Source: a virus (lineage: Duplodnaviria; Caudoviricetes). From it: a stretch of 64,000 bases of DNA. The position numbers and the translations under genes are program-made. Of this stretch, positions 510-28,105 are shown one piece after another. Positions within the stretch are counted from its first letter, which is position 1, and every line of letters begins with the position of its first letter. The DNA lies in the IMG/VR virus record IMGVR_UViG_3300027819_000006. One strand, given 5' to 3'. The notes under the pieces are model-generated. The model had not been told where the DNA came from. It searched no databases and saw only the letters and a list, made by a program, of their open reading frames with translations.

Positions 510-1694
510 TTAATTTTCTTTGACAGAGAGATTATAGACTCCTCTGTGCAGAATGTTTAGAGCAGCATTGAAATCTGCATCTAAACTTAGACAGCAATTC
601 AGACATAAAAATTGTTCATTCTTCCTATTTTTTTTATCTCTGAATCCACATGTAGAACAAGTTTGAGATGTATAGAAAGAAGAAACTTTCTTCAATTCTA
701 TACCCTGTTCTTGACACAGCATTTCAAATTTTGAAATAACACTTGGATAAGACCAATATTGCAACTTACTATTCATTTTTTTGCTATATTTTGATTTATG
801 CTTTACTTGTTGTAAATCTTCCAAGATGACAGTAGAAACATTTTTTAAATCAATGGAGTTGCAAATTTCGTTGATTTTATTGTTTTTGAAAGTAAGATAT
901 TGTTTATAGTTTTTAGAGCCTCTCTTCATATTTGATAGTATAGTATACATTTGTTTCATTTCTTGACCATAGACATCATTATTTGAAGAAACTATAAGTT
1001 TATTGTAACCTATATCAAAAGCAATGGAATCATGTTTTTCTTTCATCTCTACTTCTTTTTCATATGAAAATATAATATAAAAATTGTCATTTATTTTCTT
1101 TAACTGCACAGTTTTCTTTCTATTCCAGTCTTTATATTTTAAAGATTGCTTATGCCACTTTATTGGAAGATTAATTTGAATTGCTTTCTTTTTATCAGAA
1201 TAAAAATGAGGCAATTTCAGTCCTATAAACTCATTAAAATGAATAGAAGAATTTTCATAGCTGAGTAATCTGTCATCAATATTAATAGAAATATTCTTAA
1301 TGTCTATTTTGCAAATTTTTATAGCATCTTTCAATTTCAAATCTTTAAATCTTTTGTTCAGAAATTTCAGCTGTCTATTTCTTTTGATAAAGTATTTGTA
1401 GCACTTCTTATATTTTTTATATCTTTTATCTAGACAGTATTCTATATTAGATCTGACAATCTCAGAAGCTTGTTTATAGACAATTTGTCTCCACTGAGAA
1501 TGATGAATTTTGTTAATAGGAAGAATCTTAGAAGACAAATTCTTATTTAATTCTAATTTTTGAGATAAAATAAGCTCTATATAAAATTTGACGTCTATTT
1601 CATAATCTTCAAATAGTTGTTCTAAATATTTAATTTTATTTAAATTAGAAAATTTTAAAATATGTCTACTACTTCTTATCAAGATCAATCTCAC
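510..1694 (-). CDS. tnpB: TnpB-family RNA-guided endonuclease (IS200/IS605/IS607 type), no TnpA adjacent
   Basis: RuvC-I AFDIG, RuvC-II VILEDL, zinc finger CSTCG...CLNC, RuvC-III DADFNAALNI; 394 aa. Confidence 0.9.
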   Translation of the reverse strand: MRLILIRSSRHILKFSNLNKIKYLEQLFEDYEIDVKFYIELILSQKLELNKNLSSKILPINKIHHSQWRQIVYKQASEIVRSNIEYCLDKRYKKYKKCYKYFIKRNRQLKFLNKRFKDLKLKDAIKICKIDIKNISINIDDRLLSYENSSIHFNEFIGLKLPHFYSDKKKAIQINLPIKWHKQSLKYKDWNRKKTVQLKKINDNFYIIFSYEKEVEMKEKHDSIAFDIGYNKLIVSSNNDVYGQEMKQMYTILSNMKRGSKNYKQYLTFKNNKINEICNSIDLKNVSTVILEDLQQVKHKSKYSKKMNSKLQYWSYPSVISKFEMLCQEQGIELKKVSSFYTSQTCSTCGFRDKKNRKNEQFLCLNCCLSLDADFNAALNILHRGVYNLSVKEN

Positions 1695-1799
1695 AATAAA
1701 AATGCCAAGTATTGAACCTCAAATAGACTATGTCTATAAAGATACTTGGCAAATAGATAACATCTATTTGAGGTTCATATATAAATATATTGTGAGATT
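1687..1799 (-). promoter_or_regulatory. Structured leader upstream of tnpB (interleaved inverted repeats plus start-codon-sequestering arm)
   Basis: Perfect inverted pairs 1703-1712/1742-1751 (10 bp), 1713-1727/1763-1777 (15 bp), 1687-1698/1788-1799 (12 bp, covers the GTG start); AATATATTTAT motif at about 1781-1791. Confidence 0.75.
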
Positions 1800-2546: not shown

Positions 2547-3046
2547 TAATTTATTCCCAATTTCTGTTCTATTAATTTTCTTGTAATATAGTGTAAATTA
2601 AATTTGTAACAATATTCTATATACCATTGTTGTATAGTATTTTTATTCTTTTTAGCTTTTGCAGCACCTTTCCAATCACATATCATTTCTTCTACATATT
2701 TTTCTGGTATTTCTAATGCTATACACTTATCATACTCTTCATCTTCTTCAATATCAATTTCTAATGGCATAATCCAATATTGCCAATGATGTTTATTTCT
2801 TGCAAAATGTAAAAATACTGCTCTATCAAATTTATCACCAGAATTATGTGTCGAATTATATACTTTCTTGCTTCTATTTCCTGCACTTTTACCATAAAAA
2901 TATTCTGAATATGCTAAAAATTCTGATGGACAAAAAGACGAAATATCATGAATTAATCCCAGCAATGGTCTACCAATTTTGCACATTTCTAAAAAAACAT
3001 ACCATTTATGAATTAATCGATATCTTAAGTGTTTTAAATATTTCAT
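2546..3046 (-). CDS. DUF5662-like putative HD-type protein
   Basis: HK...HD.S.F...H..RNKHHWQYW...EMICDW pattern. Confidence 0.55.
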   Translation of the reverse strand: MKYLKHLRYRLIHKWYVFLEMCKIGRPLLGLIHDISSFCPSEFLAYSEYFYGKSAGNRSKKVYNSTHNSGDKFDRAVFLHFARNKHHWQYWIMPLEIDIEEDEEYDKCIALEIPEKYVEEMICDWKGAAKAKKNKNTIQQWYIEYCYKFNLHYITRKLIEQKLGIN

Positions 3047-3109
3047 TTTTAACTAGTCTCAAATTGATTGGATTGCTTAGCATCCCTTGAATCGCTTAGC
3101 GTCTTTAAT

Positions 3110-4045
3110 TTACACCTTTTTATTTTTCAACATTTTTCTCAATGTTCTTACCAACTGCTTCCTTGCTTGATTCATTCTTTTGGTCTTTAAATCTCTTCTC
3201 TTCCTACGTATTGGCTTTAATCCTTGAGCAATCCTATCTTCATTGATCTTCTTTCTATTTTCTTCTTTGTCAATTTTCTTCTGTTCTCTGTTCTGTATAT
3301 CAATTAAAACAAGCTTATTTCTCTGTTCTGTAATATAGTCTAATAAATGATTTGATAAATAAGCAGATTTGCAAATTCCAGGAGTATTGCCAAGAAATTC
3401 AGAAGTTTTTGTAACGATCAGTTTTATTTCCTTGCTCAAATCTACTTTTTTAAGAGGAAGCTCTTTATCTTTGATAAAATCTTCATATATGCAGAAAGCT
3501 GTGTAGTTTGCTGCTAATGTTCGAAAATCTTTTGTAGTGAATATTTTGCCTATATTCTTCTTTAAATACTTCTTTATGCTTTTATCTGTGATATTTAGCC
3601 ATAAATCTGTTGATGATTCTTCATAAAATTTATGACCATATTCAATTAAAATTTTATCATCAGAAGTTATAAATTGGCTTACAACTTTTTTTCCTACAAA
3701 ATCTAGTATGATATGATTGTCATAAAATAGAATATGTTCCTTTTTCAGAGTAGAAGCTCCAAAAGTTTGAACAAATTCGCCTTCATGTCCTTTAACTACC
3801 GCTGTATAACCTTCAGCTGAGCCCTCATTTCCCACACGAATTCCGGTTTTGCAGAGTAGATATATAGCATATGCTTCTTTTGATCCAGTTTTAATATCTT
3901 CTACAATCTCGGGTTCAATTTTTGTCCAAACTTCAGCAAGCTTGTTTACTCTATTAAATTTAGAAGCTTTCTTATCCTTCTGCTTAATTCTATTGCTTTT
4001 AGAGAAAAATTCTACCTCTCTACCATTGAATATCAGTTTTGACAT
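3110..4045 (-). CDS. DNA topoisomerase IB (bacterial/viral type)
   Basis: TGIRVGNE, DFVGKK, KDFRT, LGNTPGICKSAY catalytic-region motifs. Confidence 0.9.
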   Translation of the reverse strand: MSKLIFNGREVEFFSKSNRIKQKDKKASKFNRVNKLAEVWTKIEPEIVEDIKTGSKEAYAIYLLCKTGIRVGNEGSAEGYTAVVKGHEGEFVQTFGASTLKKEHILFYDNHIILDFVGKKVVSQFITSDDKILIEYGHKFYEESSTDLWLNITDKSIKKYLKKNIGKIFTTKDFRTLAANYTAFCIYEDFIKDKELPLKKVDLSKEIKLIVTKTSEFLGNTPGICKSAYLSNHLLDYITEQRNKLVLIDIQNREQKKIDKEENRKKINEDRIAQGLKPIRRKRRDLKTKRMNQARKQLVRTLRKMLKNKKV

Positions 4046-4098
4046 TTTTCTCTCTATTTAATAATAACACATTGTTTATGATTAAATATAAACAAATA

Positions 4099-5247
4099 TC
4101 ATACAAATGTAAACAACTTTTTTTCATCTTTTAATAAATCTTCTTTAAACAAAATATAGAATATTTTTGATTCTTTATCGTATTTTTCAATAAAAATTTG
4201 CATTTTCTCTTTAGATTCTGGTCTCATCCAGCCTTTAACTTCTTCTATTCTTATCAAATTATTATTTTCATCATAGATAAAGAAATCAGGAGTATAAGTT
4301 GTATTTTCTAATTTATAAGTTATTTCTTCATATTTCCAATTTGCAGATATAGAATCTAGAAATTGAGCTCTTTCCAGCTCATAGGTAGATTTCATCTTTA
4401 TTTCAGCATTGTTTCTATCTGCATAAACAACTCGATGCCACTTAGGAGATACTCCATACATAGGATTTCCAGAACCAGATCTATCTATAGACCATTTTTG
4501 TTTTTGTTCGTCTGAAAAAATATATCCATACATGCTATTTTTGCTACCAGTCATAGGATTAACACGATGATTTTCTTTATGTTTATTAATTAATTTTAAT
4601 AATTTATTTTCTGCAATTTCCTCTCCATATTTAATTACCCAAGCATCAAAAAAAGACATTCCAAACATTGGGTTTTTGTCTCCTTTTAATGATTCAGAAA
4701 TGTTTCTCTTATGAGAATCTGAAAGTTTTTTATCTTGCCAAACACCAGGCCTACCCATTAAAGATTTAGATATTTTTTCTTTTACTCCAGGCTTATGTAC
4801 AGGATTTCTATCTCCAAGTTTACAACAAACTCTGCACATATTTAAATCTGCAGAAACTACATTAGTGCATCCTTCTTCAACACAATAGAAAGTTTTAGAA
4901 GCTTTACATTCATCACAAATAAAAATTTTTCTATGACCTTTAAGCATTTTATCTCCACATACTGTACATCTACAAGTATTTTTCTCAGACATATAAAATT
5001 GATGTTTTGAACATCTACTACCTTCATTTTTTACTTTATTGTTGCAATTTTCTATTAAGCATTTATATTCTATTTTATTTCTGCAATCTCCACAAATACC
5101 AATTTTATTAGTTCCGCCTATAGGATTTATTTTACAAGTTTTGCATATTAATGGAGGTTTTCCACTCTTACATCTTTTACAGATATTACTTTTATAATTA
5201 ACATTAAGTTTTTTAGGGCACGATATACAGTATCTATCTTCTTGCAT
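4099..5247 (-). CDS. Free-standing homing-type endonuclease: Cys-rich repeats + NUMOD3-like repeats + PD-(D/E)xK domain
   Basis: Many CxxC pairs, HKRNISESLKGDKNPMFG repeats, C-terminal YTPDF...EEVKGW. Confidence 0.75.
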   Translation of the reverse strand: MQEDRYCISCPKKLNVNYKSNICKRCKSGKPPLICKTCKINPIGGTNKIGICGDCRNKIEYKCLIENCNNKVKNEGSRCSKHQFYMSEKNTCRCTVCGDKMLKGHRKIFICDECKASKTFYCVEEGCTNVVSADLNMCRVCCKLGDRNPVHKPGVKEKISKSLMGRPGVWQDKKLSDSHKRNISESLKGDKNPMFGMSFFDAWVIKYGEEIAENKLLKLINKHKENHRVNPMTGSKNSMYGYIFSDEQKQKWSIDRSGSGNPMYGVSPKWHRVVYADRNNAEIKMKSTYELERAQFLDSISANWKYEEITYKLENTTYTPDFFIYDENNNLIRIEEVKGWMRPESKEKMQIFIEKYDKESKIFYILFKEDLLKDEKKLFTFV

Positions 5248-5260: not shown

Positions 5261-5370
5261 AAAAATTGTCTATAGTAGCACCCTAATAGACTGAAGTCAG
5301 AAGGCTATAGACAATTTTTCAAATATATTTATGTTTTGTCTATTAGTGTGCTTATAATAAATATATTTGA
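5261..5370 (-). promoter_or_regulatory. Structured leader upstream of endonuclease 4099..5247
   Basis: Inverted pairs 5261-5275/5305-5319 (15/15) and 5277-5291/5338-5352 (14/15); 17-mer ataataaatatatttga at 5354-5370. Confidence 0.75.
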
Positions 5371-5603: not shown

Positions 5604-5620
5604 TTAGTAATTCTCCTCTA

Positions 5621-5655
5621 TTTTGGTATGTTTAAATATAAATTTCATACCAAAA
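5621..5655 (-). promoter_or_regulatory. Hairpin with TATATTTA in the loop, just upstream of the RBS of the truncated topoisomerase copy
   Basis: ttttggtatg (5621-5630) / cataccaaaa (5646-5655); an 8-bp hairpin (4072-4079/4088-4095) overlapping the same motif precedes the intact copy. Confidence 0.5.
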
Positions 5656-5669
5656 GTAAAGGATTATTT

Positions 5670-9021: not shown

Positions 9022-10020
9022 CTATTCCTCAATATTGAAAATAATACGACTCCCATAAGAATCTATCTCAAAATGTTCTTCTGTCAAGCCTAAGCTATTC
9101 ATTGAAGCTCTTACATTCTCTTGTTTGTCTGGTTTGGCGTATAGTATTAAATATCCTCCCCCACCGGCTCCTGTAATCTTACCACCTGTTGCTCCAGCTT
9201 GTATTGCTGAATTATAAAGATTGTCAATATGCTCATTGCTTATATTACTACTAAATGTTTTCTTTAACTCCCAGTTCTTAGACATTGTTCGGCCAATAGC
9301 ATCAAAATCTCTATTTTTCAAACTAACATTTAGATGTTTAGCTAATTCTACATTTAGATGCATTGCTTCTATTACTTTTTGATTGTCAATTAAATTGCTA
9401 TTCTGTTCATTGAGCACAGAAGATGATTCTCTAGTTATTCCAGTATTAAACATTAAAATGTTTCTAGATATGCTTTTTAGCTCATCATCTGAGAAGTCAT
9501 ATCTCGATATTCCTACATAGTCATTCTTCTCAAATAGAAATCTGTTGAAACCACCAACTGATGCCCAGTATTGATCCTGAACACCGATATTACGGTTGCA
9601 CATGTTTATCTCTATATGACAAGCCTCTTTAGCTAATCTTTCTTTAGAAACTTGCTGACCATTCATAGTATATAAAGCATTCAATAGAGACACTAAAAAT
9701 GAGCTAGAAGACCCAAGTCCTGTGCCCTTTAAAGAAATATCAGAAAAACAAACTATTTCTAGTCCACAATCTATATTTAGATATTTTAAAGTATTTTTAA
9801 CAAAATCATGCTTTATCGAATTTATATTATTTACATCAACTATTTCATTTTCTGAATATTTAAGAAATATCTTATTATCTTTTCTTTTCTTAACCAGAAC
9901 ATATGTAAATTTATTTATAGAAAAACCTATACATATTCCGCCATATTTTTTAAAATATATTGGAGAATCACTTCCTCCACCGCAGAGTCCCAAACGAGTC
10001 GGAGATTTACTTAAAATCAA
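9022..10020 (-). CDS. hddA: GHMP kinase, D-glycero-alpha-D-manno-heptose-7-phosphate kinase-like
   Basis: PTRLGLCGGGSD, GTGLGSSSS, GVQDQY, KITGAGGGGY. Confidence 0.85.
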   Translation of the reverse strand: MILSKSPTRLGLCGGGSDSPIYFKKYGGICIGFSINKFTYVLVKKRKDNKIFLKYSENEIVDVNNINSIKHDFVKNTLKYLNIDCGLEIVCFSDISLKGTGLGSSSSFLVSLLNALYTMNGQQVSKERLAKEACHIEINMCNRNIGVQDQYWASVGGFNRFLFEKNDYVGISRYDFSDDELKSISRNILMFNTGITRESSSVLNEQNSNLIDNQKVIEAMHLNVELAKHLNVSLKNRDFDAIGRTMSKNWELKKTFSSNISNEHIDNLYNSAIQAGATGGKITGAGGGGYLILYAKPDKQENVRASMNSLGLTEEHFEIDSYGSRIIFNIEE

Positions 10021-14811: not shown

Positions 14812-16087
14812 TGAGCATATCTAACTTCATCAGATCCTTCTTTTATCATTCTGATATTTGGAGCCTCTGGTTTTTCTATTGTCTCTTGCAAAGGTTTAAT
14901 TTCTAATTTATATCTATACCAATTTCTCTCATCTTTACTTGTTTCTTTAAAATAAACATCTTCATATCTTTTAACAGAAGCAACCCAGCCAAATTTCTGC
15001 AATTCTTCATTTATATGTGGCAATGCATGATCTATCCTATTAAAACACGGTAAATCTATTTATCCACCATTAGATGATATTCTTCTGTTAAGACTATTAA
15101 ATTCATACTCGATAGAAAACAAAACATTCTTTATTAGCTGTTCAGCATAATTTTTAGATATTTTGTGTTCTGTTTCTTTTAATTGCTGTGGAGTTGGAAT
15201 GTTCATAGATTGTCTGTAAATTTTAGAAATTGATGAATATCAGTGAAAACTTGATTATTTGCTACTATTCTGTAACCTTTTCTGTAAATATCTGATACAT
15301 TTGAAAGTAAAGATTTAACAACCTCTCCATTGATACATTCATAATAATGTATTCTTATGTTTTTATCATCTTTTTCTATAGAATACCAGCCATCTTTATG
15401 TAATAGATCATAATTCATAATTACTTGTCAAGTCCTAATTCTAATTCATGGCTCTTGACTGTCAGAATACTTTCTATCAAATTCAATCTTTCTCTTATAG
15501 CATATACTTCATTATAAAATTGCTCTATTTGTTCTGCTGAACAATTCATATCTCTTATACAATGTTCATAGCTAATTATATGATCTCTAATATTCATAAA
15601 ATCTTCAGTGACTTGCTTTTTCTGTTTATTTTTGTTCATTTTATATTTCTCCAATTAATTCAGCATTTTTGTCTATCCAATCAATATCTATAGCTTACTT
15701 GTGAAATCTGACATAGTCATTTTCACCAAAATCTATTTCATACATTTTGCTATATACAAAAGATATATTTCCTATCATCTCTATTTCTTGTCCATATCCA
15801 ATTTTAACTTTTATTCTATCATTTAACTTGAATTTATTACTGTTTTTTGGAGATATATAGCTTTCAAAAAATAGTATATTATCTTTTAATCTGATATTGT
15901 CATATTTCATGTTATCTCTCGAGTTTTGTTTTCTCTACCATACCATTTTTCTCTTTTATTAACAGCATTGTTGTATGCTTCTAAACAATTTATTAAATAT
16001 TCGGCTAATATAAAATCAGGAGTATTACTATAGTTTTCTATGGAATATTTATTTATAAGTTGCGTTAATTCTCTTTGAAAATCAATT

Positions 16088-17695
16088 TCATTCATCTTTA
16101 TAAATCCTTTCTTTAACTTTTTTAGCTGTTAATTCATATTGAAGCTCTTCTCTTTGCAAATCTCTTTTCTGTTTATCTATTGATTTTCTATGGATTATAT
16201 GATTGCCGATCAATATAAATTCTTTTTTAGCTCCAATAACTTGCTCATGCGTTTCACCACGAAACTGACATACGTTTTTATTAAATAATCTTTTTTGAGC
16301 GTCATGTTCATAATTTATCCATTTAAATCCAGACATATTCCACCCTCTAGATTGACAAAATTCTAATAATTCCTGATCAGATAGTCCATCTAAAATATTC
16401 TTTCTTGGAATAGAAATACAATCTATATTTTTATTTTGCATCTCCCATATGCACCAGTTTATCTGATTTAGAAAATGATGTTCATATGTTTCATCTGAAT
16501 CTATAAATAGAATATAATTATTTTTAGCATTCTCTAAAGATGCATTTTTTTGTATTTCAAAGTTATCTTTCCACTCTCTTTCTATAACTTTTACTTTATC
16601 TACTCCAACTTTATTTTGAAAGCTATATAGAATATTTTTAGTTCCGTCAGAAGATTTGCTATCTATTACAGATACAAATTCATTATTTATATATAGCTCT
16701 ATATTATCTAAAGTTCTTTTAATAGTTTCTTTGTCACTTCTTGCAATGTTGCAAATACTATATTTTACATCTGGCTTTTTATGATGTTCATACAAATACA
16801 TAAACTTGTCAAACACATCTTGAACTTCTGCATTTACATTAGTTTCTACATATAAATTATTGTAAATTTCTGAACTTCTCTGTGGCAAGTGCACTGGCAA
16901 GAAAAACGTGTTTTTTGTATAGATGCATACAGTTGGTATTCTATTTCTTGCTGCAACTTCCCACAGCCAACTATTGGTTGCTATACATCCTTGAGCGTAT
17001 TCTTGAATTAGTGCTATAGTTTCTTCTACAGACAATCCCATAGCATCAAAATATTCTACTTCTTTATTCAATGCTTCTTTTAATCCATAATCTTCATCGT
17101 TTATTCCTACTAGCATTGGAGTAAATTCATTTTCATATAACTTTCTACAAATAGAAACCCATTTTTCTTTTGATAAAAATCTACCCTGCTGTAAATCAAC
17201 ATCAAATCCCTCAGGAGAACCACTAGATGTGATAGGATTAATAATGACATATTTATATTTTAATCGTAATTTTAAATTTTTACATCTATTTGGTTCATCC
17301 AAATATTTTCTTAGTCTTATATGAGGGTAATATTCAGTTTTATATTTATAGAAATCTTCCATATCATAATTTGAAATGAAAGAGGGAGTTTCATTGTTAA
17401 AAATTTCAGCACAGAAACATGCATCAATGAGCATGTCGCCATCTTTCAATATAGATTTTTTCAACCATTCTTTGAAATATTCTACTTGTGAATGATTTGT
17501 GAAATTTTTTATTACAGAAGATTTATATCCTTCTCTTGTAGCTTGTTCTTTACATAAAATAGGACTTTTACCCCAGCCGCCAAAATAGAAAACTATCTCA
17601 TGATCTGAATGTTTTTCTTTTATAGATTTACATCTAGTCAAGAAAGATAGAAAATCTCCATAGCCTGCCATATGTAAAATCACTATTTTATTCAT
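16088..17695 (-). CDS. Fused glycosyltransferase: GT9 (heptosyltransferase-like) + GT2
   Basis: N-terminal GYGD...H.I, EKW, LEETI-like/A..CIATNS; C-terminal D..SSDGT, F..QKN.SL, LFIDSDE, GETHE. Confidence 0.7.
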   Translation of the reverse strand: MNKIVILHMAGYGDFLSFLTRCKSIKEKHSDHEIVFYFGGWGKSPILCKEQATREGYKSSVIKNFTNHSQVEYFKEWLKKSILKDGDMLIDACFCAEIFNNETPSFISNYDMEDFYKYKTEYYPHIRLRKYLDEPNRCKNLKLRLKYKYVIINPITSSGSPEGFDVDLQQGRFLSKEKWVSICRKLYENEFTPMLVGINDEDYGLKEALNKEVEYFDAMGLSVEETIALIQEYAQGCIATNSWLWEVAARNRIPTVCIYTKNTFFLPVHLPQRSSEIYNNLYVETNVNAEVQDVFDKFMYLYEHHKKPDVKYSICNIARSDKETIKRTLDNIELYINNEFVSVIDSKSSDGTKNILYSFQNKVGVDKVKVIEREWKDNFEIQKNASLENAKNNYILFIDSDETYEHHFLNQINWCIWEMQNKNIDCISIPRKNILDGLSDQELLEFCQSRGWNMSGFKWINYEHDAQKRLFNKNVCQFRGETHEQVIGAKKEFILIGNHIIHRKSIDKQKRDLQREELQYELTAKKVKERIYKDE

Positions 17696-18705
17696 TTATT
17701 TAACTCTATTGTCAAGAAATTATCTGCATTTCTAATATTATAATTTAAATGAGACATTATCCATCTATCTAAACAAATATTAGTATCTTCTATTTCTTTT
17801 TCTGCATATACTATCGTAGGATTTTGCATGCAAAGAGTAAAATCTTTATCTAAGTAGTGCTTTCCAGTATGAATAAATAAAAGTTTATTTTTAAGTATGT
17901 CTGTAACACCAGTATAAGAATATATGTTGCATTTTCTATGATTTAATGATATAGCTCCATATCTTTGAATACTATTATAATTAGAGTATTTATCTGGTCT
18001 AAAACTTTTTCTTTGCTCTATAGAAGCCAATACTTTATGTGAACATAATAGATTTATAGTATCTAAACTTTTATTTTCTGACCACTTACTATACAAATGA
18101 TCTATGTTGTCGATTGAATTGACATGTAATTTATATGAGCAAGCTATAATTCTATCTATGCAAGAAGATTCTATATCATAAAATGAATTTTCAGCGATTA
18201 TAGTAGAAAATTCAACTTCTGCATCTAATCTATTATATGATTTGAAATTTTTACTAACATCATCTTTAGATATCCATCTCTGTCTTAACTTTCTAGTCTG
18301 AATAGAAATCTCTCTATCTATTATTGAGACCTTGTTACATTTACAACCATTCAAACTTAAATCTCTTATACTGCAGCTACAGCTATTTTTATAATATATT
18401 GGAATCGTTCTATTCGTATTAGTACATATCCGTATGTTAAACAAGTTATGACAAAAACTTCTATACATTCTAACCCATATTGACAATGCTAAAGATTTGA
18501 AATATTCATCAGCATAATCAGATTTATTCAGAACACTAAAATTATCTAATATTCTCTTTATTGCAATTTTATGATATAATGATTTATTGAAACCCCTTAA
18601 AAATGACTGCTCTATTAGACTTATCCATTTTTCTGGTTTGTTATTATATTCATCTAATAGCTTATTTTCATAATCTTCTATATTAATTTTGCTCTGCATT
18701 GACAT
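17692..18705 (-). CDS. Hypothetical protein with internal CxC-x9-CxC motif
   Basis: CSCSIRDLSLNGCKC at 18337-18381. Confidence 0.55.
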   Translation of the reverse strand: MSMQSKINIEDYENKLLDEYNNKPEKWISLIEQSFLRGFNKSLYHKIAIKRILDNFSVLNKSDYADEYFKSLALSIWVRMYRSFCHNLFNIRICTNTNRTIPIYYKNSCSCSIRDLSLNGCKCNKVSIIDREISIQTRKLRQRWISKDDVSKNFKSYNRLDAEVEFSTIIAENSFYDIESSCIDRIIACSYKLHVNSIDNIDHLYSKWSENKSLDTINLLCSHKVLASIEQRKSFRPDKYSNYNSIQRYGAISLNHRKCNIYSYTGVTDILKNKLLFIHTGKHYLDKDFTLCMQNPTIVYAEKEIEDTNICLDRWIMSHLNYNIRNADNFLTIELNK

Positions 18706-19067
18706 CCAATAGACATTAGAATATTCAAATCACAGCTACATTTCATATCATCAAACATTTTAACTACTTCTACATAATCTTCATCTTTTTCAAAATCTAG
18801 AGCATCATCTTCATCAAATATAGCATACTCATAATAGTCTTCTAACATTATATTATATGTAGTCTTATTCATAGCATATATTATTATTTTTGATATTTGA
18901 TCATTATCAAACTCAGCATTCAAACAATAAGTAATGTCCCAACTATTCAAACTAGCTGCATCAAAAATAGATTCTATACTAGAATAGATGTCATTTTTAT
19001 CAGAAGTACTAGTTAATTCTGTGTCTTTATAGTAGAGCTGTAGAATATCTGTAATATCTAATTTCAT
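18678..19067 (-). CDS. Acidic hypothetical protein with C-terminal CxC-x9-CxC motif
   Basis: Ends CSCDLNILMSIGCQCRAKLI. Confidence 0.6.
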   Translation of the reverse strand: MKLDITDILQLYYKDTELTSTSDKNDIYSSIESIFDAASLNSWDITYCLNAEFDNDQISKIIIYAMNKTTYNIMLEDYYEYAIFDEDDALDFEKDEDYVEVVKMFDDMKCSCDLNILMSIGCQCRAKLI

Positions 19068-19253
19068 TGATGCAAGCTCTCTTCTAATAACTTAAAATTT
19101 TTGTTCAGCGATTCAATTATAGAAGTTATTTGTAGTTCTGTGTATGACTTGTTTAATCTCTTTTTGCTATTTTTTAAACTTTCAAATACCAAAGATGCTG
19201 TACACAAATTATCTATTGTTTTTTCTACAATAGATCTATCTAAAGCAATTTTG

Positions 19254-19736
19254 TCATCCATTGATCTTTTCTATTATGTTAGTTGTTGAAACTCCTTCAA
19301 TCATTGTAAATTGTAATACTTTTCCACCATATGATTTAACATAGTCTGAGCCTATTATTTTCTTTACAGAATATTCTGAACCCTTTACAAGAACATCTGG
19401 TTTGACAGATTTAACTAAATTTAACACAGATTTATCATTGAATGCTACTATATAATCAACAAATGATATAGCAGATAGTACTTTACTTCTGTTTTCTAAA
19501 TTGTTTATTGGTCTGTCTGGTTCTTTATTCTGTTTAGTAGATTTATCTGAATTTATTCCTACTATAACTATATTGTTAGCATTTATATTTTTGCAGAAAT
19601 TTAATAGGTCAGTATGCCCTGCGTGGATCAGATCCCAGATTCCATTAGTAAATATGACAGTTTTATTGCTGAATTTTGCATTCTGTATGCTGAATAATAA
19701 ACTCTTTAGATCGACAATTTTTTCTCTATATCTCAT
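19254..19736 (-). CDS. Heptose-1-phosphate nucleotidyltransferase (RfaE/HldE domain II, HxGH cytidylyltransferase-like)
   Basis: FTNGIWDLIHAGH, VGINSD.S...K...RPI, LVKGSEY, GVSTT.II. Confidence 0.88.
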   Translation of the reverse strand: MRYREKIVDLKSLLFSIQNAKFSNKTVIFTNGIWDLIHAGHTDLLNFCKNINANNIVIVGINSDKSTKQNKEPDRPINNLENRSKVLSAISFVDYIVAFNDKSVLNLVKSVKPDVLVKGSEYSVKKIIGSDYVKSYGGKVLQFTMIEGVSTTNIIEKING

Positions 19737-19857
19737 TTTTGTTCTCTATATACAAAACTTTCTAATTCATTATCATACAAAAATATTAATCTGTATTTCA
19801 ATTTCGAAATTTCTTCTTCTGTTTTTATTGGTATGATAGATATTATCTTTTCTGATA

Positions 19858-20433
19858 CTAAATTTGATTTTTGCATTGGCAACCTTTTAATATTAAAGTG
19901 TCTATGTCACAAGTGCATCTATTAATTAAGGGTATTTTTATATGTAATTTATGCATTCTATCAGACCTTACTATAGCGTCACATTCTTCTATCAGTTTTG
20001 CAGATTTATTTTTACCATTTTTATACAAGTGCATTGCATCTTCAGATGGAGAAATTACAAACAATGGAGCAAAAATTTTTTGAATTTCATTGAGATTATT
20101 TTTATCATAATTACTTTTTTTGAATTTTGCTATATCTTGAGAAGTTTCTATGTTAGTTTTTAATCTTCTTTCTATCATAGGTACTCCGATAAAATCATCT
20201 ATACAAACATTTAACATTATATCATTCATCATATTATCTTCAGAAGTAATTTTCCATATGTTTATATTTGATTGACATTCAAAACAATCACAGCTATGAA
20301 TTTTATATTCTGGCATTACATGCTGACTATAATATATGGCAGCATACTGATTAATTACAGAATATATAAATCCTTTTACAAATGATTTAGATTCACTTTG
20401 AAAATGTTTATTAACATACTCTTCTAATGTCAT
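19858..20433 (-). CDS. Hypothetical protein with C-terminal CxC-x9-CxC motif
   Basis: Ends CTCDIDTLILKGCQCKNQI. Confidence 0.6.
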   Translation of the reverse strand: MTLEEYVNKHFQSESKSFVKGFIYSVINQYAAIYYSQHVMPEYKIHSCDCFECQSNINIWKITSEDNMMNDIMLNVCIDDFIGVPMIERRLKTNIETSQDIAKFKKSNYDKNNLNEIQKIFAPLFVISPSEDAMHLYKNGKNKSAKLIEECDAIVRSDRMHKLHIKIPLINRCTCDIDTLILKGCQCKNQI

Positions 20434-21479
20434 TTCAATCCTCTTTTCAATAAGATACTATCAACACATTCATCAATTATTTCTATTACAGTTTTCTCTT
20501 GTTTTCCAAAAAAACTATGCAATAATGATGTATCACCAAGTCTTCTTTTTACCAAATTTGGATCATGTTCTTCATATATAATTTTGCTTCTAGTGCAGTC
20601 AATTCCTTTGCTTGTAAGCAACTGCTCTATTATTTCTGTTAATTGTAATACAGATGTTTCTTTACCAGAACAAGCATTTATAAAGCCCTCAAAATAGTCT
20701 GGATTCTTCTTACAAATACCTGATTGTGCAGCTAAAATGTTATATCTAGCTACATCTTCAGCATGTATAATATCTAGTGTCTGCTGTCCATTTCCATAGA
20801 TAGTTATATCTTTTCCATCAATGAATGCATTTATAAATTTAGGTACAATCTGCACATAGATATTTTTATCTGACTGTCTTGGACTAGTTATATTAAAAGG
20901 TCTAAAAGATATAAACTTTAGTCCATCATTATCTGAATATGATTTTGCTATATGCTCTACAGATATTTTATTAGCTCCATATAGCAATGAATTATTTCTG
21001 AAATGATGTCTTTCATCTGTAGGAAAATAATCTGAATTTCCATACACAGAAGCAGATGAAGCAAATATTACTTTCTCTACTCCATATCTCAAAGACAACT
21101 CAAACATGTTGACAGAACCCATTACGCCACATTCTATTGCTTCGTATCTTGCTGATCTACTATCAAGAGTTAAAAGCGACGCTTGATGAAATACATAATT
21201 TGGTCTGAAAACATCAAATATGAAATCCATCTTTCTATAATTCGTTATATCATCTCTATAAAAATGTATTCTATTATCATTTTCAGAAGCATATTCATAG
21301 GCCCTGTCTAGATTAGACAGATTGCCATTATACATATTATCAATTACGACAATATTAGAACCTTTGTAGTATTTAGCTAATAACTCTACTATATAACTTC
21401 CAACATTTCCCGCGCCGCCAGAGATTACAGATGTAGTGCAATCTTTCTGCTCTATCTGTTTGATGTTACTATTCATCAA
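20430..21479 (-). CDS. NAD-dependent nucleotide-sugar epimerase/dehydratase
   Basis: ISGGAGNVGS, FASSASVYG, YGANK, GNGQQTLD.IH.EDVA. Confidence 0.9.
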   Translation of the reverse strand: MMNSNIKQIEQKDCTTSVISGGAGNVGSYIVELLAKYYKGSNIVVIDNMYNGNLSNLDRAYEYASENDNRIHFYRDDITNYRKMDFIFDVFRPNYVFHQASLLTLDSRSARYEAIECGVMGSVNMFELSLRYGVEKVIFASSASVYGNSDYFPTDERHHFRNNSLLYGANKISVEHIAKSYSDNDGLKFISFRPFNITSPRQSDKNIYVQIVPKFINAFIDGKDITIYGNGQQTLDIIHAEDVARYNILAAQSGICKKNPDYFEGFINACSGKETSVLQLTEIIEQLLTSKGIDCTRSKIIYEEHDPNLVKRRLGDTSLLHSFFGKQEKTVIEIIDECVDSILLKRGLK

Positions 21480-21764
21480 CCTCCACTATCGTCGTCTTCA
21501 TCATCTGATTCTTCATCTTCAGAATCAAGATCTGAATCTTTGTCTTTATAGCCATGATAAACATGTTCAGCATCTTCAAATCCCCATTCTAACATTGTCA
21601 ACATGTTCTCTAATTCTTCTTTTACTATTTTAAGTTTACTTCTGTAATACTTGACCGAGCCTTCAGATCTTCTCAAATCTATCATGTCTAAAATGTCTGA
21701 TGATTCTTCTGACAATACATTTAGAGCATCTTCTAATCTATTGCTGATTCTCACTGAGGCCATT

Positions 21765-22111
21765 TTAATTTCTCCTGTTTTGTTTGCATTGACAGCCTTG
21801 TAGCATTAATGTATTCATGTCGCATAAACATTTTCTGCTATAATCAGATTCAAAATGAAAAAATGTATCAGTTGGTTTTTTCATGGGTTGAGTAACTGCA
21901 AATTCTTCTATTATATAGCTAGACTATGTTTTTATCAGCTCTTTCTAAGTATTCATTAAATATTTCTATTGGAGCATCTTCTATGGATGGAAAAGTAACA
22001 GACATCTCTATATCGTTGTTTACATAGAGCATTCTGTTCCAATCTCTTTTAAAATTTCTGTTGCTTAATTCTTTACAGCGCTAATATTTCAATTTCAGAT
22101 TGCTCAGTCAT
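21765..22111 (-). pseudogene. Frameshifted ORFan ending in the CxC-x9-CxC motif (not in ORF track)
   Basis: Manual translation: terminal frame reads ...SRKCLCDMNTLMLQGCQCKQNRRN* (motif 21786-21830); the upstream part is in other frames from ATG at 22111. Confidence 0.6.
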
Positions 22112-22499
22112 TTTTCAGCTCTTTCATTCTATCTGAATAGCACCCACATCCATATCTAGTTAAATTATCTACACTACAAATACATTCTGTAAATTCAAAG
22201 AAATCATCTAATATAATTGATTCAAGTGTTACAGTTATTTCTGGTATTTCATTAGGTTCTGTTTTGCTTGTTTCATATTTAAGATAGAAATATAGAGGTT
22301 TGAAATTAACTTCTTGGCATTTATCTCTTAAAGTTGTTATCTGTCCAACAAAATTTTTCGGTGCTGGCATTTCATATGTACCATTATTTTGTTTGAACTG
22401 TAATTCTTCTTTTGATATTTCTTTTCTGAGAAATTGACTCAGTAATGTATCTGATTGATCTTTATAAGATTTAATTGCTCTTGCTTTTGATACTGTCAT
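22104..22499 (-). CDS. Hypothetical protein with near-terminal CxC-x9-CxC motif
   Basis: CICSVDNLTRYGCGC at 22140-22184. Confidence 0.55.
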   Translation of the reverse strand: MTVSKARAIKSYKDQSDTLLSQFLRKEISKEELQFKQNNGTYEMPAPKNFVGQITTLRDKCQEVNFKPLYFYLKYETSKTEPNEIPEITVTLESIILDDFFEFTECICSVDNLTRYGCGCYSDRMKELKND

Positions 22500-23410
22500 A
22501 ATAGCTCCTTGCTTTTATATAGTTTTTCTAGTTCTTTTAAATGATTGAACTTCAGCTCATTATTTATCAATTTTTCTGACATTTCAGAATATATTTTATG
22601 CCAATCTTTCAGATATGCTGAACTAACTGTTAAGTTAATTTCAACATCTTTATCTTGTTTTGCCATTTTAGTAAGTTTTTTCAGATCAAGTTCAGAATTA
22701 GAATTCAAATAAAACAACATTGGTCTGATATTATTTCCTAAAAATCTAGATAAGAATGCTCCTTCTAATTGTTTTTCGGGAGTAGCTTTACCTATAGGGT
22801 ATTTATTCTCAGGATTATATGTCTTGCCTTTCTCTAAAGGTTTTATAGCATTAAATTCTTCTAATGTTATTTCACGCAAATCAAACTTGAATTTCTCTTT
22901 TCCTTGTTGTAACCTATTTAAGAAATTATAAGCATATTTATTGAAATCGTCTAAAACAGCTGAATAAGGTTTTTGTTTAGTATTAAATCCTAAAAGTTCT
23001 TTTTCATTATACTTTTCGTCATATTCAGAATATCTAAATTCTTTAATCTGATAACCATCCATTCTATCTCTGATCATTTCTTCTATTTGCTGTCTTGAAT
23101 CTGTAAAAACAATTGTATCTCCATTTTTATATTTGTTTTTATGTATTTCTTCATTTTGAGAGCTTCTTTTACTGTCATAACTATAGTCTATCTCCTATGA
23201 ATTCTTTCTTCTGTTTTTTAGCATATTTTTCCATTACTTGTTCATCACTCATTTCATCAAATCCAAGTTCACACCATCCAAGGTACCAAAATTTCTTGCT
23301 ATGCCATTTATTTTTAGTATGATAAGGATTGATGCTTACTGATAAGCCAATATTTTTTATTGATTTACCTTTTAGATAAGCTGAAATCTTCTTGTTTTCT
23401 CTCTTTTTGT

Positions 23411-23908
23411 TCATAGTTCATTCCTTCTGTATGATCCACAAGTACATCCCTGCAATATCAATGTATCAATGTTGCATGTGCACTTTTTAATTATTGATTG
23501 CATGTTTTCTGCAGTTATTGGTCCTAATTTGTATTCTGCTACTATGCTTTTTGCTACATTGCAACAAATAGATTCATGAAGATTTTCTAAATCATATAGT
23601 CTATTTTTTAGAATGTAATCATAATGTTCATTAATTTTCATAGTTGTAATATCATTATTGAACAATTTATCTGATTTTGTTAAAGAAGCTTCATCTACTG
23701 TTTCTTTAAATAGAATTATATTATCAATATTTTCATGAATATCTACTTTTACTCTATCAAGAGCAACTTTTTGGGTCCTGTAAGTGAAACATAATTCTAA
23801 ATAAAATTTAATATCTTCTATACAAGCATAGCATAAATCATATTCTTTATAATTTTCATCAATTTCAAAATATTTAGAATGATCTACTGTTTTATTAGCA
23901 CATCTCAT
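23411..23908 (-). CDS. Hypothetical protein with C-terminal CxC-x9-CxC motif
   Basis: Ends CTCNIDTLILQGCTCGSYRRNEL. Confidence 0.6.
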   Translation of the reverse strand: MRCANKTVDHSKYFEIDENYKEYDLCYACIEDIKFYLELCFTYRTQKVALDRVKVDIHENIDNIILFKETVDEASLTKSDKLFNNDITTMKINEHYDYILKNRLYDLENLHESICCNVAKSIVAEYKLGPITAENMQSIIKKCTCNIDTLILQGCTCGSYRRNEL

Positions 23909-24819
23909 TTAATTTTCTCAATTTCTTGTAAGAATCTCTTAACTGCATCTTTCCAATCTGGCATCTGTTTTAGCTCTTTGCATTTTCTCAATCTATAGCA
24001 ATCTAAAGCTGAAAAATTTGGTCTCTTGACATTGGAGTAAAACTCTGAAGCTTTTACTGCTTCTAATAAATTAACATCCCAACCCATCAATTCGTAAATA
24101 TATTTGGCAAACTTATACCAGCTCAGAACTCCTCTGTTAACTATATTCCATGTCCCATATTCTTGTACATCATGAATTAGCATATCTACTAAAACTTCAC
24201 TAATGTCTTTAGTATATGCTATGGAGATAATCTGGTATGACACTACTTTTGTTACATCTTTTCCATTATATTTGTTCATGATCATATATGGAAAATTGCT
24301 CCAATTTTTAGCTGAACTACCTTTCTTGCCAAATAGAGATGATACTCTTATATTAAAATATTTATTGCATATAGCTTTCAGAGTCATTTCTCCAGCAGCT
24401 TTTGTTACTCCATAGAAATTCAGAGGATCTACTTTTGCAAATTCTGTGAATCCTTCAGATGTTAGAGCTTGAGATGAATCCGAGCCAAGCACATAGTCAG
24501 TACTAAAATTAATGAGCAGACTATCGTATTTATTTGCCAACTGAGCCATATTTTTTACAGCAACTATATTGACCTCGCAAGCTAAAGATGGATTATTTTC
24601 AATTTGTTCAACATTATGACATGATGCTCCGTTAATTACGATGTCAGGACGTAAATCTTCAAAATAGTGCTCTATAAGTTTAGGATCAGTAACATCTAAT
24701 TCTTCTCTATTTCTAGCTATAGTTAAAAATTTATCTCCATGCAGTTTTAGATTACTATAGAGATCAGAGCATAATTGCCCATCGCTGCCAGAAATTAAGA
24801 CTCTCTTTACTAAACTCAT
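23905..24819 (-). CDS. rmlD: dTDP-4-dehydrorhamnose reductase-like SDR
   Basis: LISGSDGQL, FSTDYV, P.NFYGVTK.AGE, RP.FSALD, W...V..F. Confidence 0.85.
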   Translation of the reverse strand: MSLVKRVLISGSDGQLCSDLYSNLKLHGDKFLTIARNREELDVTDPKLIEHYFEDLRPDIVINGASCHNVEQIENNPSLACEVNIVAVKNMAQLANKYDSLLINFSTDYVLGSDSSQALTSEGFTEFAKVDPLNFYGVTKAAGEMTLKAICNKYFNIRVSSLFGKKGSSAKNWSNFPYMIMNKYNGKDVTKVVSYQIISIAYTKDISEVLVDMLIHDVQEYGTWNIVNRGVLSWYKFAKYIYELMGWDVNLLEAVKASEFYSNVKRPNFSALDCYRLRKCKELKQMPDWKDAVKRFLQEIEKIK

Positions 24820-25400
24820 TACTTAGTTTCCCTCTTCCAATCCCAACCCATTATATCGACAGAAGCTCTATATTCATCAGATCCGTTATATTTGTTATTT
24901 ATAAAGTAGAGTAAAATAGCTTCTTCATTTGTAAAATTAAAAGAGCCATGTTGTAATCCTCTTCTCACTATTACAGGGCCGTTATTAGTGTTCCTATCAG
25001 ACAAATAAAACCATTTACATACTGGTCCATTTATAAAATCAGAATATAAATCTTTATTCTGTTTAAAATAATCTGAATTCATAAAATCAAACCACTGATT
25101 AACTAATTTTAGTCGTTGAATTTTTGAATAATCAGATGTTTTTTTAATGAAATCATCAAGAGTTTTATTATCATATCTCTCTCTATATAAATCATAAACT
25201 GCTTGACTATAATTTGGAACATTACAAATTCCAATTTTTAGAGAACCTTTGAGCACAATTTGATAATCATCTTGAGCATAATGCATGTGGAAAGCTGCTA
25301 GTGTACCTGGATAAACTATACTGCAATTTATGTCTCCCTCTTTCATAGAAGAAAATATGTCACAGTATCTCTGAGCTCTATCATCTCCACCTGCTCGCAT
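24819..25400 (-). CDS. RmlC-like cupin (dTDP-4-dehydrorhamnose 3,5-epimerase-like) with an internal insertion
   Basis: S..YPG...AFHMH..QDD..VLKG.LKI and V.V.RGL.HG..N; adjacent to rmlD. Confidence 0.65.
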   Translation of the reverse strand: MRAGGDDRAQRYCDIFSSMKEGDINCSIVYPGTLAAFHMHYAQDDYQIVLKGSLKIGICNVPNYSQAVYDLYRERYDNKTLDDFIKKTSDYSKIQRLKLVNQWFDFMNSDYFKQNKDLYSDFINGPVCKWFYLSDRNTNNGPVIVRRGLQHGSFNFTNEEAILLYFINNKYNGSDEYRASVDIMGWDWKRETK

Positions 25401-25639
25401 TAGATCAATTCCTTTCTACAAATACACCCTTTTAATGTCAAAGTATCTATATCACAGACACATTCTATATTATTAGTAGCAATTTTATTAGCAAATCTTT
25501 CAAATTTAAAGTTATTCCTCATCACACTTCTCATGCCATTTTCTATATACCACTCAGAATAATTTTTTACTGATCTTATTTCATAGCCACTATTTTTAAG
25601 ATATCTCTGAATATCTTCTGGTAATTTACTTTCATTCAT
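25400..25639 (-). CDS. Small protein with C-terminal CxC-x9-CxC motif
   Basis: Ends CVCDIDTLTLKGCICRKELI. Confidence 0.6.
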   Translation of the reverse strand: MNESKLPEDIQRYLKNSGYEIRSVKNYSEWYIENGMRSVMRNNFKFERFANKIATNNIECVCDIDTLTLKGCICRKELI

Positions 25640-25654
25640 AACGCACCTCTTAAT

Positions 25655-27084: not shown

Positions 27085-27109
27085 CTCAATTAAATTTTAA
27101 TACAATAGA

Positions 27110-27973: not shown

Positions 27974-27979
27974 TATACA

Positions 27980-28092: not shown

Positions 28093-28105
28093 AATGCAAA
28101 ATGCA

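Follow-up and report, generated by a model that had tools for sequence, protein, structure and literature searches.

In the T-even phages, expression of the homing endonuclease genes I-TevI, I-TevII, I-TevIII, segB, and Aeh1 mobE involves a hairpin that sequesters the ribosome-binding site (RBS) and an adjacent late promoter (PMC2988022). The sequestering structure restricts translation of the phage homing endonucleases to transcripts from the adjacent late promoter, and the T-even transcripts are also limited by terminators and RNase E sites (PMC2988022). In addition, T4-like phages carry promoter-early stem-loop cassettes (PeSLs), a repeated motif composed of a promoter and a stem-loop (PMC2839356, PMC4122927). 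A phage can tolerate many selfish nuclease genes only as long as these stay silent until they can do no harm, and nearly all known ways of achieving this come from T4.

The present study describes what may be a different and more elaborate solution. In the genome of an uncultured groundwater phage (272 kb), which was found in DNA sequencing runs only, a leader of approximately 100 bases consists of a promoter-like motif followed by two long, mutually exclusive hairpins. In all four copies in the window (the whole stretch of 64,000 nt analyzed), the promoter-like motif is followed by A, B, A*, B*, a U-rich tract, and the RBS, with stems of 15-19 bp (A) and 10-15 bp (B) and with A* abutting B*. 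The fuller module runs from a pyrimidine-rich box C through the motif P (TATATTTAT), A, P* (the reverse complement of P, seen in approximately half of the copies), B, and a mini-hairpin M to A*, B* (abutting A*), the U-rich tract, a strong Shine-Dalgarno (SD) sequence, and the start codon. As in the T-even phages, a selfish nuclease gene lies in a co-directional operon with a putative promoter immediately upstream, an upstream segment of the read-through RNA can pair with the ribosome-binding region (c1, c3, e5, e8, and others), and the proposed purpose is nuclease synthesis from one class of transcript. However, T4 uses a single hairpin, whereas two long helices, and in half of the copies three, are interleaved here (P-A-P*-B-A*-B*), and topology rather than shared bases makes them mutually exclusive. 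One leader module is common to 13 genes, including TnpB genes, and the promoter motif is TATATTTAT in place of the T4 late TATAAATA. The features of the four copies are as follows.

1788-1799, minus strand: segment C of copy 1 (AATCTCACAATA), located 5' to the promoter-like motif; pairs with C* (12 nt, 100% complementary)
1781-1790, minus strand: copy 1 promoter-like motif P (ATATATTTAT; core TATATTTAT)
1763-1777, minus strand: copy 1 arm A (TGAACCTCAAATAGA), starting 3 nt past the motif
1742-1751, minus strand: copy 1 arm B (TGCCAAGTAT)
1723-1737, minus strand: copy 1 mini-hairpin M (ATAGAC-ATA-GTCTAT), read from the sequence; its 3' arm overlaps the start of A*
1713-1727, minus strand: copy 1 arm A*
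1703-1712, minus strand: copy 1 arm B*, directly adjoining A*
1687-1702, minus strand: copy 1 U-rich tract (TTTTTATT), then C* (TATTGTGAGATT), which spans the SD-like GTGAGA
510-1682, minus strand: TnpB gene, 390 aa, TTG start at 1682, Cas12f1-like TNB domain (PF07282, 3.4e-17)
5261-5370, minus strand: copy 2 leader, with P 5370-5357, A 5352-5338, P* 5332-5319, B 5319-5305, A* 5291-5277, and B* 5275-5261; 3' of B* follow U9, GGAGAGG, and ATG at 5247
5247-4099, minus strand: copy 2 downstream gene, NUMOD3 plus PD-(D/E)XK-like
27980-28092, minus strand: copy 3 leader, with C 28092-28083, P 28085-28076, A 28072-28056, B 28047-28034, A* 28021-28005, B* 28004-27991, C* 27989-27980, and ATG at 27973
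27973-27110, minus strand: copy 3 downstream gene, NUMOD3 plus Vsr/DUF559-like
35056-35150, minus strand: copy 4 leader, with P 35146-35137, A 35136-35118, B 35109-35100, A* 35084-35066, B* 35065-35056, and ATG at 35037
35037-34843 and 34668-34225, minus strand: split nuclease downstream of copy 4, a 64-aa zinc-finger ORF and a NUMOD3 ORF, respectively

In copy 1, on the minus strand, the three stems are perfect, as given in a preliminary description of this DNA: A/A* comprises 15 bp (1777-1763 with 1727-1713), B/B* 10 bp (1751-1742 with 1712-1703), and C:C* 12 bp (1799-1788 with 1698-1687). Segment C would be carried by read-through RNA only. The same description placed C* on the start codon; however, the gene call starts TnpB with TTG at 1682, not with GTG at 1694, and C* therefore covers the SD-like GTGAGA and not the start codon. 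The A-B-A*-B* order shared by the four copies was confirmed. Copy 2 has one A.G mismatch in its 15-bp A stem and a perfect B stem of 15 bp; both stems of copy 3 are perfect (A, 17 bp; B, 14 bp), and those of copy 4 comprise 18-19 bp (A) and 10 bp (B). The mini-hairpin M is also found in c3, c4, e9, and e13.

At least 13 copies are present in approximately 133 kb of the genome, with 4 in the window (c1 to c4) and 9 elsewhere (e numbers), and all 13 are intergenic and on the coding strand. Since MAFFT was unable to align the divergent stems, we used a sequence-agnostic helix scan. Under strict settings (two perfect stems of at least 12 and at least 10 bp, interleaved, with A* and B* within 3 nt of each other), 3 architectures were detected in the window, each on the coding strand, while none appeared in 200 composition-matched windows simulated with a second-order Markov model. 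The leader thus recurs non-randomly. The strict scan found only 7 cases, in pure-AT low-complexity sequence, in 1.12 Mb of other AT-rich viral DNA. When the scan was linked to the motif, 10 matches were obtained in 114 kb of this genome (11 with e9, which the scan missed) versus 1 match in 1.68 Mb of other loci.

The leader is associated with nuclease genes. All 13 copies lie upstream of nuclease-type genes, versus none of approximately 176 other genes (Fisher p = 2.8e-15), which extends the link noted for the first four. Two of the downstream genes encode TnpB, and the other 11 encode zinc-finger/NUMOD3 homing-endonuclease-like proteins that are either truncated or carry Vsr/DUF559-type or PD-(D/E)XK-type domains. 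By domain content, 11 of the 13 genes match the homing-endonuclease type, with the activity being predicted. The window copies had been said to precede four unrelated nucleases; however, zinc-finger and NUMOD3 modules are common to the three nucleases other than TnpB, and only TnpB is unrelated to the others. Several nuclease genes of this genome, including two OrfB_IS605-type TnpBs, do not have the leader. It is also absent from the TnpB relatives in other contigs, at 83% (L210), 62% (L129), 58% (L127), and 51% (L211) identity, and from 80 IMG/VR loci with related Vsr/NUMOD3 nucleases. A general phage safety-catch for nucleases had been suggested. Given that none of the TnpB or nuclease relatives examined in other phages carries the leader, it is not a device of such generality. 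The best explanation is that it is specific to this phage lineage, in which it sits on the selfish nuclease genes. We rejected the ends of IS200/IS605 or IS607 transposons and the TnpB omega-RNA as its identity because TnpB relatives have no leader and because the same leader precedes non-TnpB nucleases.

Searches for closer relatives gave the following results. A 6-kb piece queried by Megablast matched none of 50,697 phage records, IMG/VR scans with TnpB and with a DNA polymerase fragment produced no relatives, and an exact 38-mer found nothing in one JGI metagenome. An IMG/VR scan with a 16-nt motif returned 119 unrelated AT-rich loci, none with the leader architecture. Contigs from three other groundwater runs contained only short identical fragments of positions 17000-36900 or unrelated pieces, and thus provided neither orthologous variation nor empty sites.

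In 114 kb, the 9-mer of P is enriched in sense intergenic DNA, with 14 occurrences versus 5 in sense genic DNA. In every copy, the core of A starts 3-6 nt past TATATTTA, such that a start of the T4 late type (6 nt past the 8-mer) would put A at the 5' end of the RNA. We infer a promoter and start site at P from the position of this motif. The phage encodes its own sigma factor (phrog_351, 7e-25; locus L120, 334-954), which probably reads P. A generic scan for sigma-70 promoters and terminators did not flag the leaders and showed no enrichment. A fixed -35 element upstream of P was rejected, with ATGCAT-like boxes occurring at varying spacing. Since all genes and the other copies of the motif share one direction, the resemblance to a T4 late promoter (TATAAATA) on the opposite strand was attributed to the near-palindromic AT motif, and such a promoter was rejected.

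We propose that the leader acts as RNA and senses the origin of the transcript, thereby limiting nuclease production to the cassette's own promoter. We assign this reading a probability of approximately 45%, slightly below even odds. We infer RNA-level action, the start of the transcripts, a terminating role for B, and the switch direction as follows. RNA begun at P would have its 5' end at, or a few nt from, A. A* would be transcribed ahead of B*, such that the A:A* hairpin would form at the 5' end of the RNA and topologically exclude B:B*. The U-rich tract and RBS would then stay open, and the nuclease would be translated. Read-through RNA from the upstream genes would additionally contain P and C. 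In this RNA, P:P*, or another upstream partner, would loop out A ahead of the synthesis of A*, and M and B:B* would form instead of A:A*. With A-rich and U-rich tracts on its flanks, B:B* would have the appearance of an intrinsic terminator set against the RBS, and C would pair with the RBS in any RNA that continues past B. The nuclease would consequently be made only from the cassette's own promoter.

The pairing of the upstream segment C with the ribosome-binding region, as previously claimed, was significant in c1 (duplex of -25.3 kcal/mol, z = -6.2) and c3 (z = -4.4). It was also significant in e5 (p ~0.015) and was borderline in e8, while in e10, e11, e13, and e14 complementary CU-rich boxes were read by eye. 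C:C* is weak or absent in c2, c4, e7, and e9, and is statistically clear in only 3-4 copies. Its strength in c1 and c3 favors plain T4-type control, in which C:C* alone would be functional and hide the RBS in read-through RNA, transcripts from the own promoter would escape, and no A/B switching would occur. A and B would then be stabilizing or spacing hairpins, such as a 5'-terminal protective stem or a clamp for C and C*. The minimum-energy fold of the full-length RNA combines C:C* with A:A*, A sits at the predicted 5' end in the manner of 5'-terminal stabilizer hairpins, and the T-even homing endonucleases provide a precedent (PMC2988022). However, this explanation does not account for the conservation and compensatory upkeep of B:B*, M, and P*, for the constant interleaving of B with A, which are never nested or side by side, or for the copies with weak or no C:C*. 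We consider it unlikely.

The two main helices had been described as mutually exclusive or as a pseudoknot. Mutual exclusion of A:A* and B:B* stands, whereas a full pseudoknot appears to be sterically impossible. The A*/B* junction comprises 0-2 nt (a 3-nt overlap in e9), A often abuts B, and the helices are 10-21 bp long; geometrically, a linker of zero length could not span a helix of 15-20 bp. An H-type RNA pseudoknot was thus rejected, with the A*/B* linker being too short for both helices at once. The P3/P7 pseudoknot of group I introns was rejected on account of its different order and stem lengths and the lack of an Rfam match for the leader. In the window, the only gathering-level matches to Rfam 15 were two group I introns away from the leaders, and permissive Rfam scans of the four leaders yielded only chance-level miRNA-like hairpin matches. 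An explicit P:P* helix is present in only about half of the copies, and comprises 8-14 bp in c2, e8, e10, e13, and e14.

In all 13 copies, a U-rich tract of 8-13 nt (60-100% U, on a strand with 31% T) separates B* from the SD sequence, although e10 does not have a clean U run. An A-rich tract often precedes B, and a strong SD sequence and start codon follow within 0-13 nt in every copy. In a simple terminator scan, 3 copies passed in the B fold. The loop of the B hairpin is 25-45 nt long and partly closed by M, and the stems are GC-poor; such a loop is atypical for intrinsic terminators. The order of promoter-like motif, structured region, hairpin, and U-rich tract would also suit a small non-coding RNA gene, in which P drives a short RNA (70-100 nt) that terminates at the B hairpin and U tract and has its own function, the nuclease being made by read-through only. 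We regard this as very improbable because the copies have no conserved single-stranded seed, their sequences are almost completely divergent, and the SD sequence and start codon are always immediately downstream.

The folding z-scores of the leaders range between -3 and -6. At equilibrium, c1, c4, and e9 favor the A state, and e5, e8, e10, and e11 favor the B state, with either type of transcript, and the A/B probabilities differ among copies without a consistent rule. In a crude co-transcriptional model, the A state formed in 8-9 of 11 own-promoter RNAs versus 4 of 11 read-through RNAs, a result that is sensitive to the choice of barrier threshold. In several copies, the A and B states are nearly equal in free energy, as expected if a trans-acting factor set the switch. 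The leader may then be a site for a phage RNA-binding repressor or RNase III, or a partial pseudoknot like that of the T4 gene 32 leader, with the factor either deciding between A and B or degrading the mRNA. The long, near-perfect duplexes (15-21 bp) and the heptamer AUAGUCU, conserved at the loop/A* border in approximately half of the copies, are consistent with such a site. However, no candidate factor was found, the heptamer is missing from the other half, and the stem sequences differ almost entirely between copies, such that recognition by shape would be needed. We consider this explanation improbable, and less likely than the two that we set beside it, namely, plain T4-type control and the DNA-level module described below.

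The stem sequences had been reported to differ between copies, which mostly holds, except that c1, c4, and e9 align at 70-89% identity. In the alignment of these three, 4 of 21 pairs changed on both sides and none on one side, and 98% of the cells are paired versus 25-44% when the partner is slid; the stems have evolved by compensatory change. The e9 leader, which precedes a TnpB gene, is 89% identical to the c4 leader, which precedes an unrelated zinc-finger nuclease gene, and only 72% identical to the other TnpB leader. This indicates that leaders have been exchanged between unrelated genes, and the copies are related by descent. Across all copies, conservation is confined to the 9-nt motif. 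PeSLs are similar in being short composite motifs of a promoter and a stem-loop that are repeated many times per genome, flank accessory genes, and show signs of exchange between unrelated genes. However, the sequence of PeSLs is conserved, they contain a single stem-loop, and they lie before miscellaneous ORFans of hyperplastic regions, whereas the leader diverges in sequence, retains two interleaved helices, and precedes nuclease genes only. A cassette of the PeSL type was rejected on the grounds that only the 9-nt motif is common to all copies and that two interleaved helices are present, not one stem-loop.

Over the 13 copies, the stems are 94% Watson-Crick. With symmetric scoring, G.U exceeded A.C by 11 to 8 in 13 copies and by 9 to 7 in 11 copies, which was not significant. 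The absence of a wobble strand bias and the predominance of Watson-Crick pairs leave room for a role at the DNA level. The leader may be a mobile promoter/terminator cassette that resembles PeSLs (PMC4122927) and serves mainly as a homology patch for the exchange of nuclease cassettes, with inverted repeats acting in DNA as hairpins or cruciforms or in recombination or replication intermediates. The 89% identity of the e9 and c4 leaders before unrelated genes favors this explanation. However, recombination requires homology and not two interleaved helices maintained by compensatory substitutions, the leader has a single orientation relative to its gene with the U tract and SD sequence fixed 3' of B*, and the arms are separated by spacers of 30-45 nt. 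Spacers of this length are too long for easy cruciform extrusion. Furthermore, shuffling and a role as RNA are mutually compatible. We consider a module acting mainly as DNA to be quite unlikely, less so than the factor site and more so than plain T4-type control.

The proposed origin-sensing RNA also resembles attenuators and riboswitch expression platforms, with a chain of three helices that exclude one another, a U tract after the last of them, and the outcome decided by the helix that forms first. Neighboring helices of known attenuators compete for the same nucleotides, whereas the leader helices have no nucleotides, or at most 3 nt, in common and are mutually exclusive through interleaving. 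The proposed input is the 5' end of the transcript; attenuators use a ribosome, tRNA, protein, or ligand. The leader of the MS2 maturation gene and the hok mRNA are delayed-folding or bistable leaders that limit the translation of low-copy or toxic proteins. As in these RNAs, a metastable 5' hairpin would form first and compete with a more stable alternative, and the product is required only in small quantity or is harmful. However, long-range pairing covers the SD sequence directly in MS2 and hok, while that of the leader lies outside A and B. The leader may be a "topological attenuator" in which P:P*, A:A*, and B:B* share no nucleotides, exclude each other by interleaving, read the 5' origin of the transcript, and set both termination and translation, as a portable module on RNA-guided (TnpB) and protein-guided homing nucleases of a huge phage. 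We offer this more specific proposal as a doubtful possibility. If the proposed switching logic is correct, the leader would represent RNA switching through helix interleaving instead of competition for shared bases, and a compact, sequence-programmable part that makes expression depend on the promoter of origin.

The phage uses the leader at least 13 times, and the leader has apparently passed between unrelated families of nucleases, among them TnpB, the regulation of which in phages is little known. Its architecture provides a simple annotation signature for mobile nuclease cassettes in huge-phage genomes. A degenerate version of the leader, which we left out of the count, lies upstream of a NUMOD3-Vsr gene at 16050-16177 of locus L120.

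Every part of the TnpB leader listed in the preliminary description was present 5' of the TnpB gene on the minus strand, which carries the genes throughout the window. In this leader (c1), A* and B* adjoin and are followed by TTTTTATT. The order of parts is identical in the other three window copies (c2, c3, and c4). In the following list, P is the promoter-like motif, C is a segment 5' of P, and starred arms are pairing partners.

1799-1788 with 1698-1687, minus strand: C/C* of c1, 12 bp, perfect
1790-1781, minus strand: promoter-like motif of c1, ATATATTTAT
1777-1763 with 1727-1713, minus strand: A/A* of c1, 15 bp, perfect
1751-1742 with 1712-1703, minus strand: B/B* of c1, 10 bp, perfect
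1682, minus strand: TTG start of TnpB (gene call in an overlapping public contig)
5370-5261, minus strand: c2, A of 15 bp with one mismatch, B of 15 bp
28092-27980, minus strand: c3, A of 17 bp, B of 14 bp, and C/C* of 10 bp as well
35150-35056, minus strand: c4, A of 18-19 bp, B of 10 bp

Since TnpB starts at TTG 1682, C* of c1 covers the SD-like GTGAGA and not, as previously proposed, the start codon. Unusually long gaps lie upstream of c1 and c4 (1695-1988 and 35038-35286, minus strand), each with a short ORF and its own SD; the ORF at c4 spans the promoter motif and reaches arm A.

The window is part of an approximately 272-kb contig from groundwater metagenomes. This huge phage has T4-type structural genes, for a gp13-family neck protein and for a baseplate wedge subunit, and no close relative was found in phage or IMG/VR collections. 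The occurrence of the same architecture at three more window sites was borne out, and nine further copies (e-numbers) in other parts of the contig extended the set from four to 13 in approximately 133 kb, about half of the genome. A degenerate fourteenth site (L120 16050) was left out of this count.

L120 14255 and 18783: further leader copies
L123 17584: further leader copy
L124 110, 4820, ~9900, and 13655: further leader copies
L213 5787: further leader copy
L214 11361: further leader copy

In 13/13 copies, the A core begins 3-6 nt past TATATTTA, and between B* and a strong SD, usually GGAG, there are 8-13 nt that are 60-100% U. The A*/B* gap is 0-2 nt, with a 3-nt overlap in e9; A often adjoins B too, given extended pairing, and an A-rich run often lies 5' of B. 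A mini-hairpin (M) between B and A*, the 3' arm of which overlaps A*, was found in c1, c3, c4, e9, and e13, and AUAGUCU marks the M/A* border in approximately half of the copies. The reverse complement of the promoter motif (P*, 8-14 bp) occupies the A-B spacer in c2, e10, e13, e14, and e8, which consequently read P-A-P*-B-A*-B*. The SD region is a potential pairing partner of a pyrimidine-rich box 5' of the motif; this complementarity was significant in c1, c3, and e5, borderline in e8, and visible by eye in e10, e11, e13, and e14.

Chance does not readily produce this arrangement. A strict scan (two perfect interleaved stems, the one ≥12 bp and the other ≥10 bp, second arms at most 3 nt apart) matched the window three times, always on the coding strand, versus none in 200 second-order Markov simulations of it. 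The same scan of unrelated viral DNA rich in AT (1.12 Mb) returned seven cases, all pure-AT and of low complexity. A tolerant scan yielded 10 motif-linked matches in 114 kb of the phage genome versus one in 1.68 Mb of other loci; it missed e9 because of the A*/B* overlap. Folding z-scores of the four window-copy RNAs ranged between -3.1 and -6.1.

Stem sequences had been described as differing between copies. Across all 13, the motif alone is invariant; however, c1, e9, and c4 align at 70-89% identity. In this alignment, four of 21 pairs changed on both sides (three in A and one in B) and none on one side only, and 98% of cells pair versus 25-44% after sliding the 3' partner by 1-3 columns. 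By this alignment, the leader copies share a common origin, and their stems have diverged through compensatory substitutions. A role at the DNA level, such as that of a PeSL-like recombination module (PMC4122927), is possible and may coexist with an RNA role; consistent with it, wobble pairs lack strand bias under symmetric scoring, and 94% of stem pairs are Watson-Crick. The leader may also be subject to a shared trans-acting factor or to processing by RNase III.

The leader e9, which precedes a TnpB gene, is 89% identical to c4, which precedes a zinc-finger nuclease gene, but shares only 72% identity with the second TnpB leader. Therefore, the leader is a module that moved between unrelated genes.

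TnpB paralogs, 67% identical to each other, follow two of the 13 leaders. The remaining 11 precede one modular protein family with N-terminal CxxC zinc-finger repeats and NUMOD3 motifs, in which the C-terminal domain is Vsr/DUF559-type, PD-(D/E)XK (endonuclease I/resolvase-like), or missing; two of these genes are split. The nucleases had been regarded as unrelated. This holds for TnpB, whereas the three other window nucleases are related via their shared DNA-binding modules. The c4 nuclease is split (34225-35037, minus strand) into a 64-aa zinc-finger ORF and a 147-aa NUMOD3 ORF separated by 174 nt, and is probably a decaying gene with its leader still intact. Similar decay was noted at L124 13761-14599 (a zf-C2H2/NUMOD3 ORF and a DUF559 remnant out of frame) and L123 14270-15222.

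None of approximately 176 other genes in the examined DNA carries the leader (Fisher p = 2.8e-15). It is missing from no fewer than eight nuclease-type genes, among them one TnsA-like gene, two Vsr-type genes that follow neighbouring genes closely, one broken gene, and two OrfB_IS605-type TnpBs. Two TnpBs of another subfamily, with the OrfB_IS605 domain, lie at L213 1-571 (plus strand) and 2873-4099 (minus strand). The latter, the sole gene seen on the opposite strand, lacks a hairpin leader and has TATATTTAT 12 nt 5' of its ATG.

The leader was not found at TnpB relatives of 83%, 62%, 58%, and 51% identity on other contigs, including other huge phages, at 80 IMG/VR loci with related Vsr/NUMOD3 nucleases, or in Rfam. 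These absences speak against the general phage nuclease "safety-catch" previously envisaged; on present evidence, the leader is specific to this phage lineage. The nearest TnpB outside the phage genome (83% identity; L210 1-135, on a 1.3-kb contig of a different sample) lacks the leader and overlaps the tail of an upstream ORF, which suggests that its phage counterparts were fitted anew with the phage's own nuclease leader.

In T4, translation of I-TevI, segB, and mobE depends on RNA started at a neighbouring late promoter, because the RBS is concealed in longer transcripts; terminators and RNase E sites act as additional brakes (PMC2988022). The proposed leader logic extends this scheme. The leader, known by sequence from a single uncultured phage genome, is best classed as a new form of leader-based homing-endonuclease control, unusual in its chain of interleaved helices. 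The preliminary interpretation was upheld in part.

A:A* and B:B* had been proposed to be mutually exclusive or a pseudoknot. Given zero-length junction linkers and helices of 10-21 bp, the two helices cannot, on geometric grounds, form at once as a pseudoknot, which leaves two alternative folds: hairpin A with B inside its loop, or hairpins M and B with A* inside the loop. As A* is transcribed ahead of B*, hairpin A should prevail as long as A is unpaired. If the motif is a T4-type late promoter, with a start approximately 6 nt past the 8-mer, own-promoter RNA would begin at A and take the A fold, leaving the U tract and SD open. Read-through RNA would also carry P and C; P:P* would enclose A before A* exists, and would exclude A:A* because of the same topology as A:A* versus B:B*. 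In c3, a 9-bp upstream partner of the 3' end of A may take this role. B and M could then form, placing an intrinsic-terminator-like hairpin between the A-rich and U-rich tracts, against the SD, and C could close over the SD in any continuing RNA. We infer the promoter, start site, termination at B, and direction of the switch from these features. A crude co-transcriptional heuristic, dependent on the barrier threshold, showed a trend in line with this logic, with the A fold reached by 8-9 of 11 own-promoter RNAs versus 4 of 11 read-through RNAs. The equilibrium A/B outcome was not uniform among copies; therefore, the switch, if real, would be kinetic. A phage-encoded sigma factor (L120 334-954; phrog_351, 7e-25; weak Pfam Sigma70_r2 match) is a candidate reader of TATATTTA-type motifs.

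A second class of promoter-like motif, TTGTTTATATTTAAAC, often with ATTACAAAATGG after it, is found in front of ordinary genes and has no hairpins. Some instances come immediately 3' of a nuclease cassette, a placement that would suit renewed transcription of the following gene.

Window ~4080 and ~5640, minus strand: second motif class
L120 2770 and 3150: second motif class
L124 11400 and 16900: second motif class

At 5604-5669 (minus strand), a perfect 10-bp hairpin (TTTTGGTATG/CATACCAAAA) holds the promoter-like motif TTTATATTTAAA in its loop and is followed by GGAG and the ATG of an 83-aa ORF, the plain arrangement of a promoter within a hairpin. A hairpin like it stands before a nuclease gene on another phage contig (L122, ~9950-10000). 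An 814-nt "gap" between the ORFs 43592-44032 and 44847-45095 contains two group I introns (Rfam RF00028; 44038-44355 and 44442-44676, minus strand; 50.8 and 63.7 bits), which presumably interrupt one gene.
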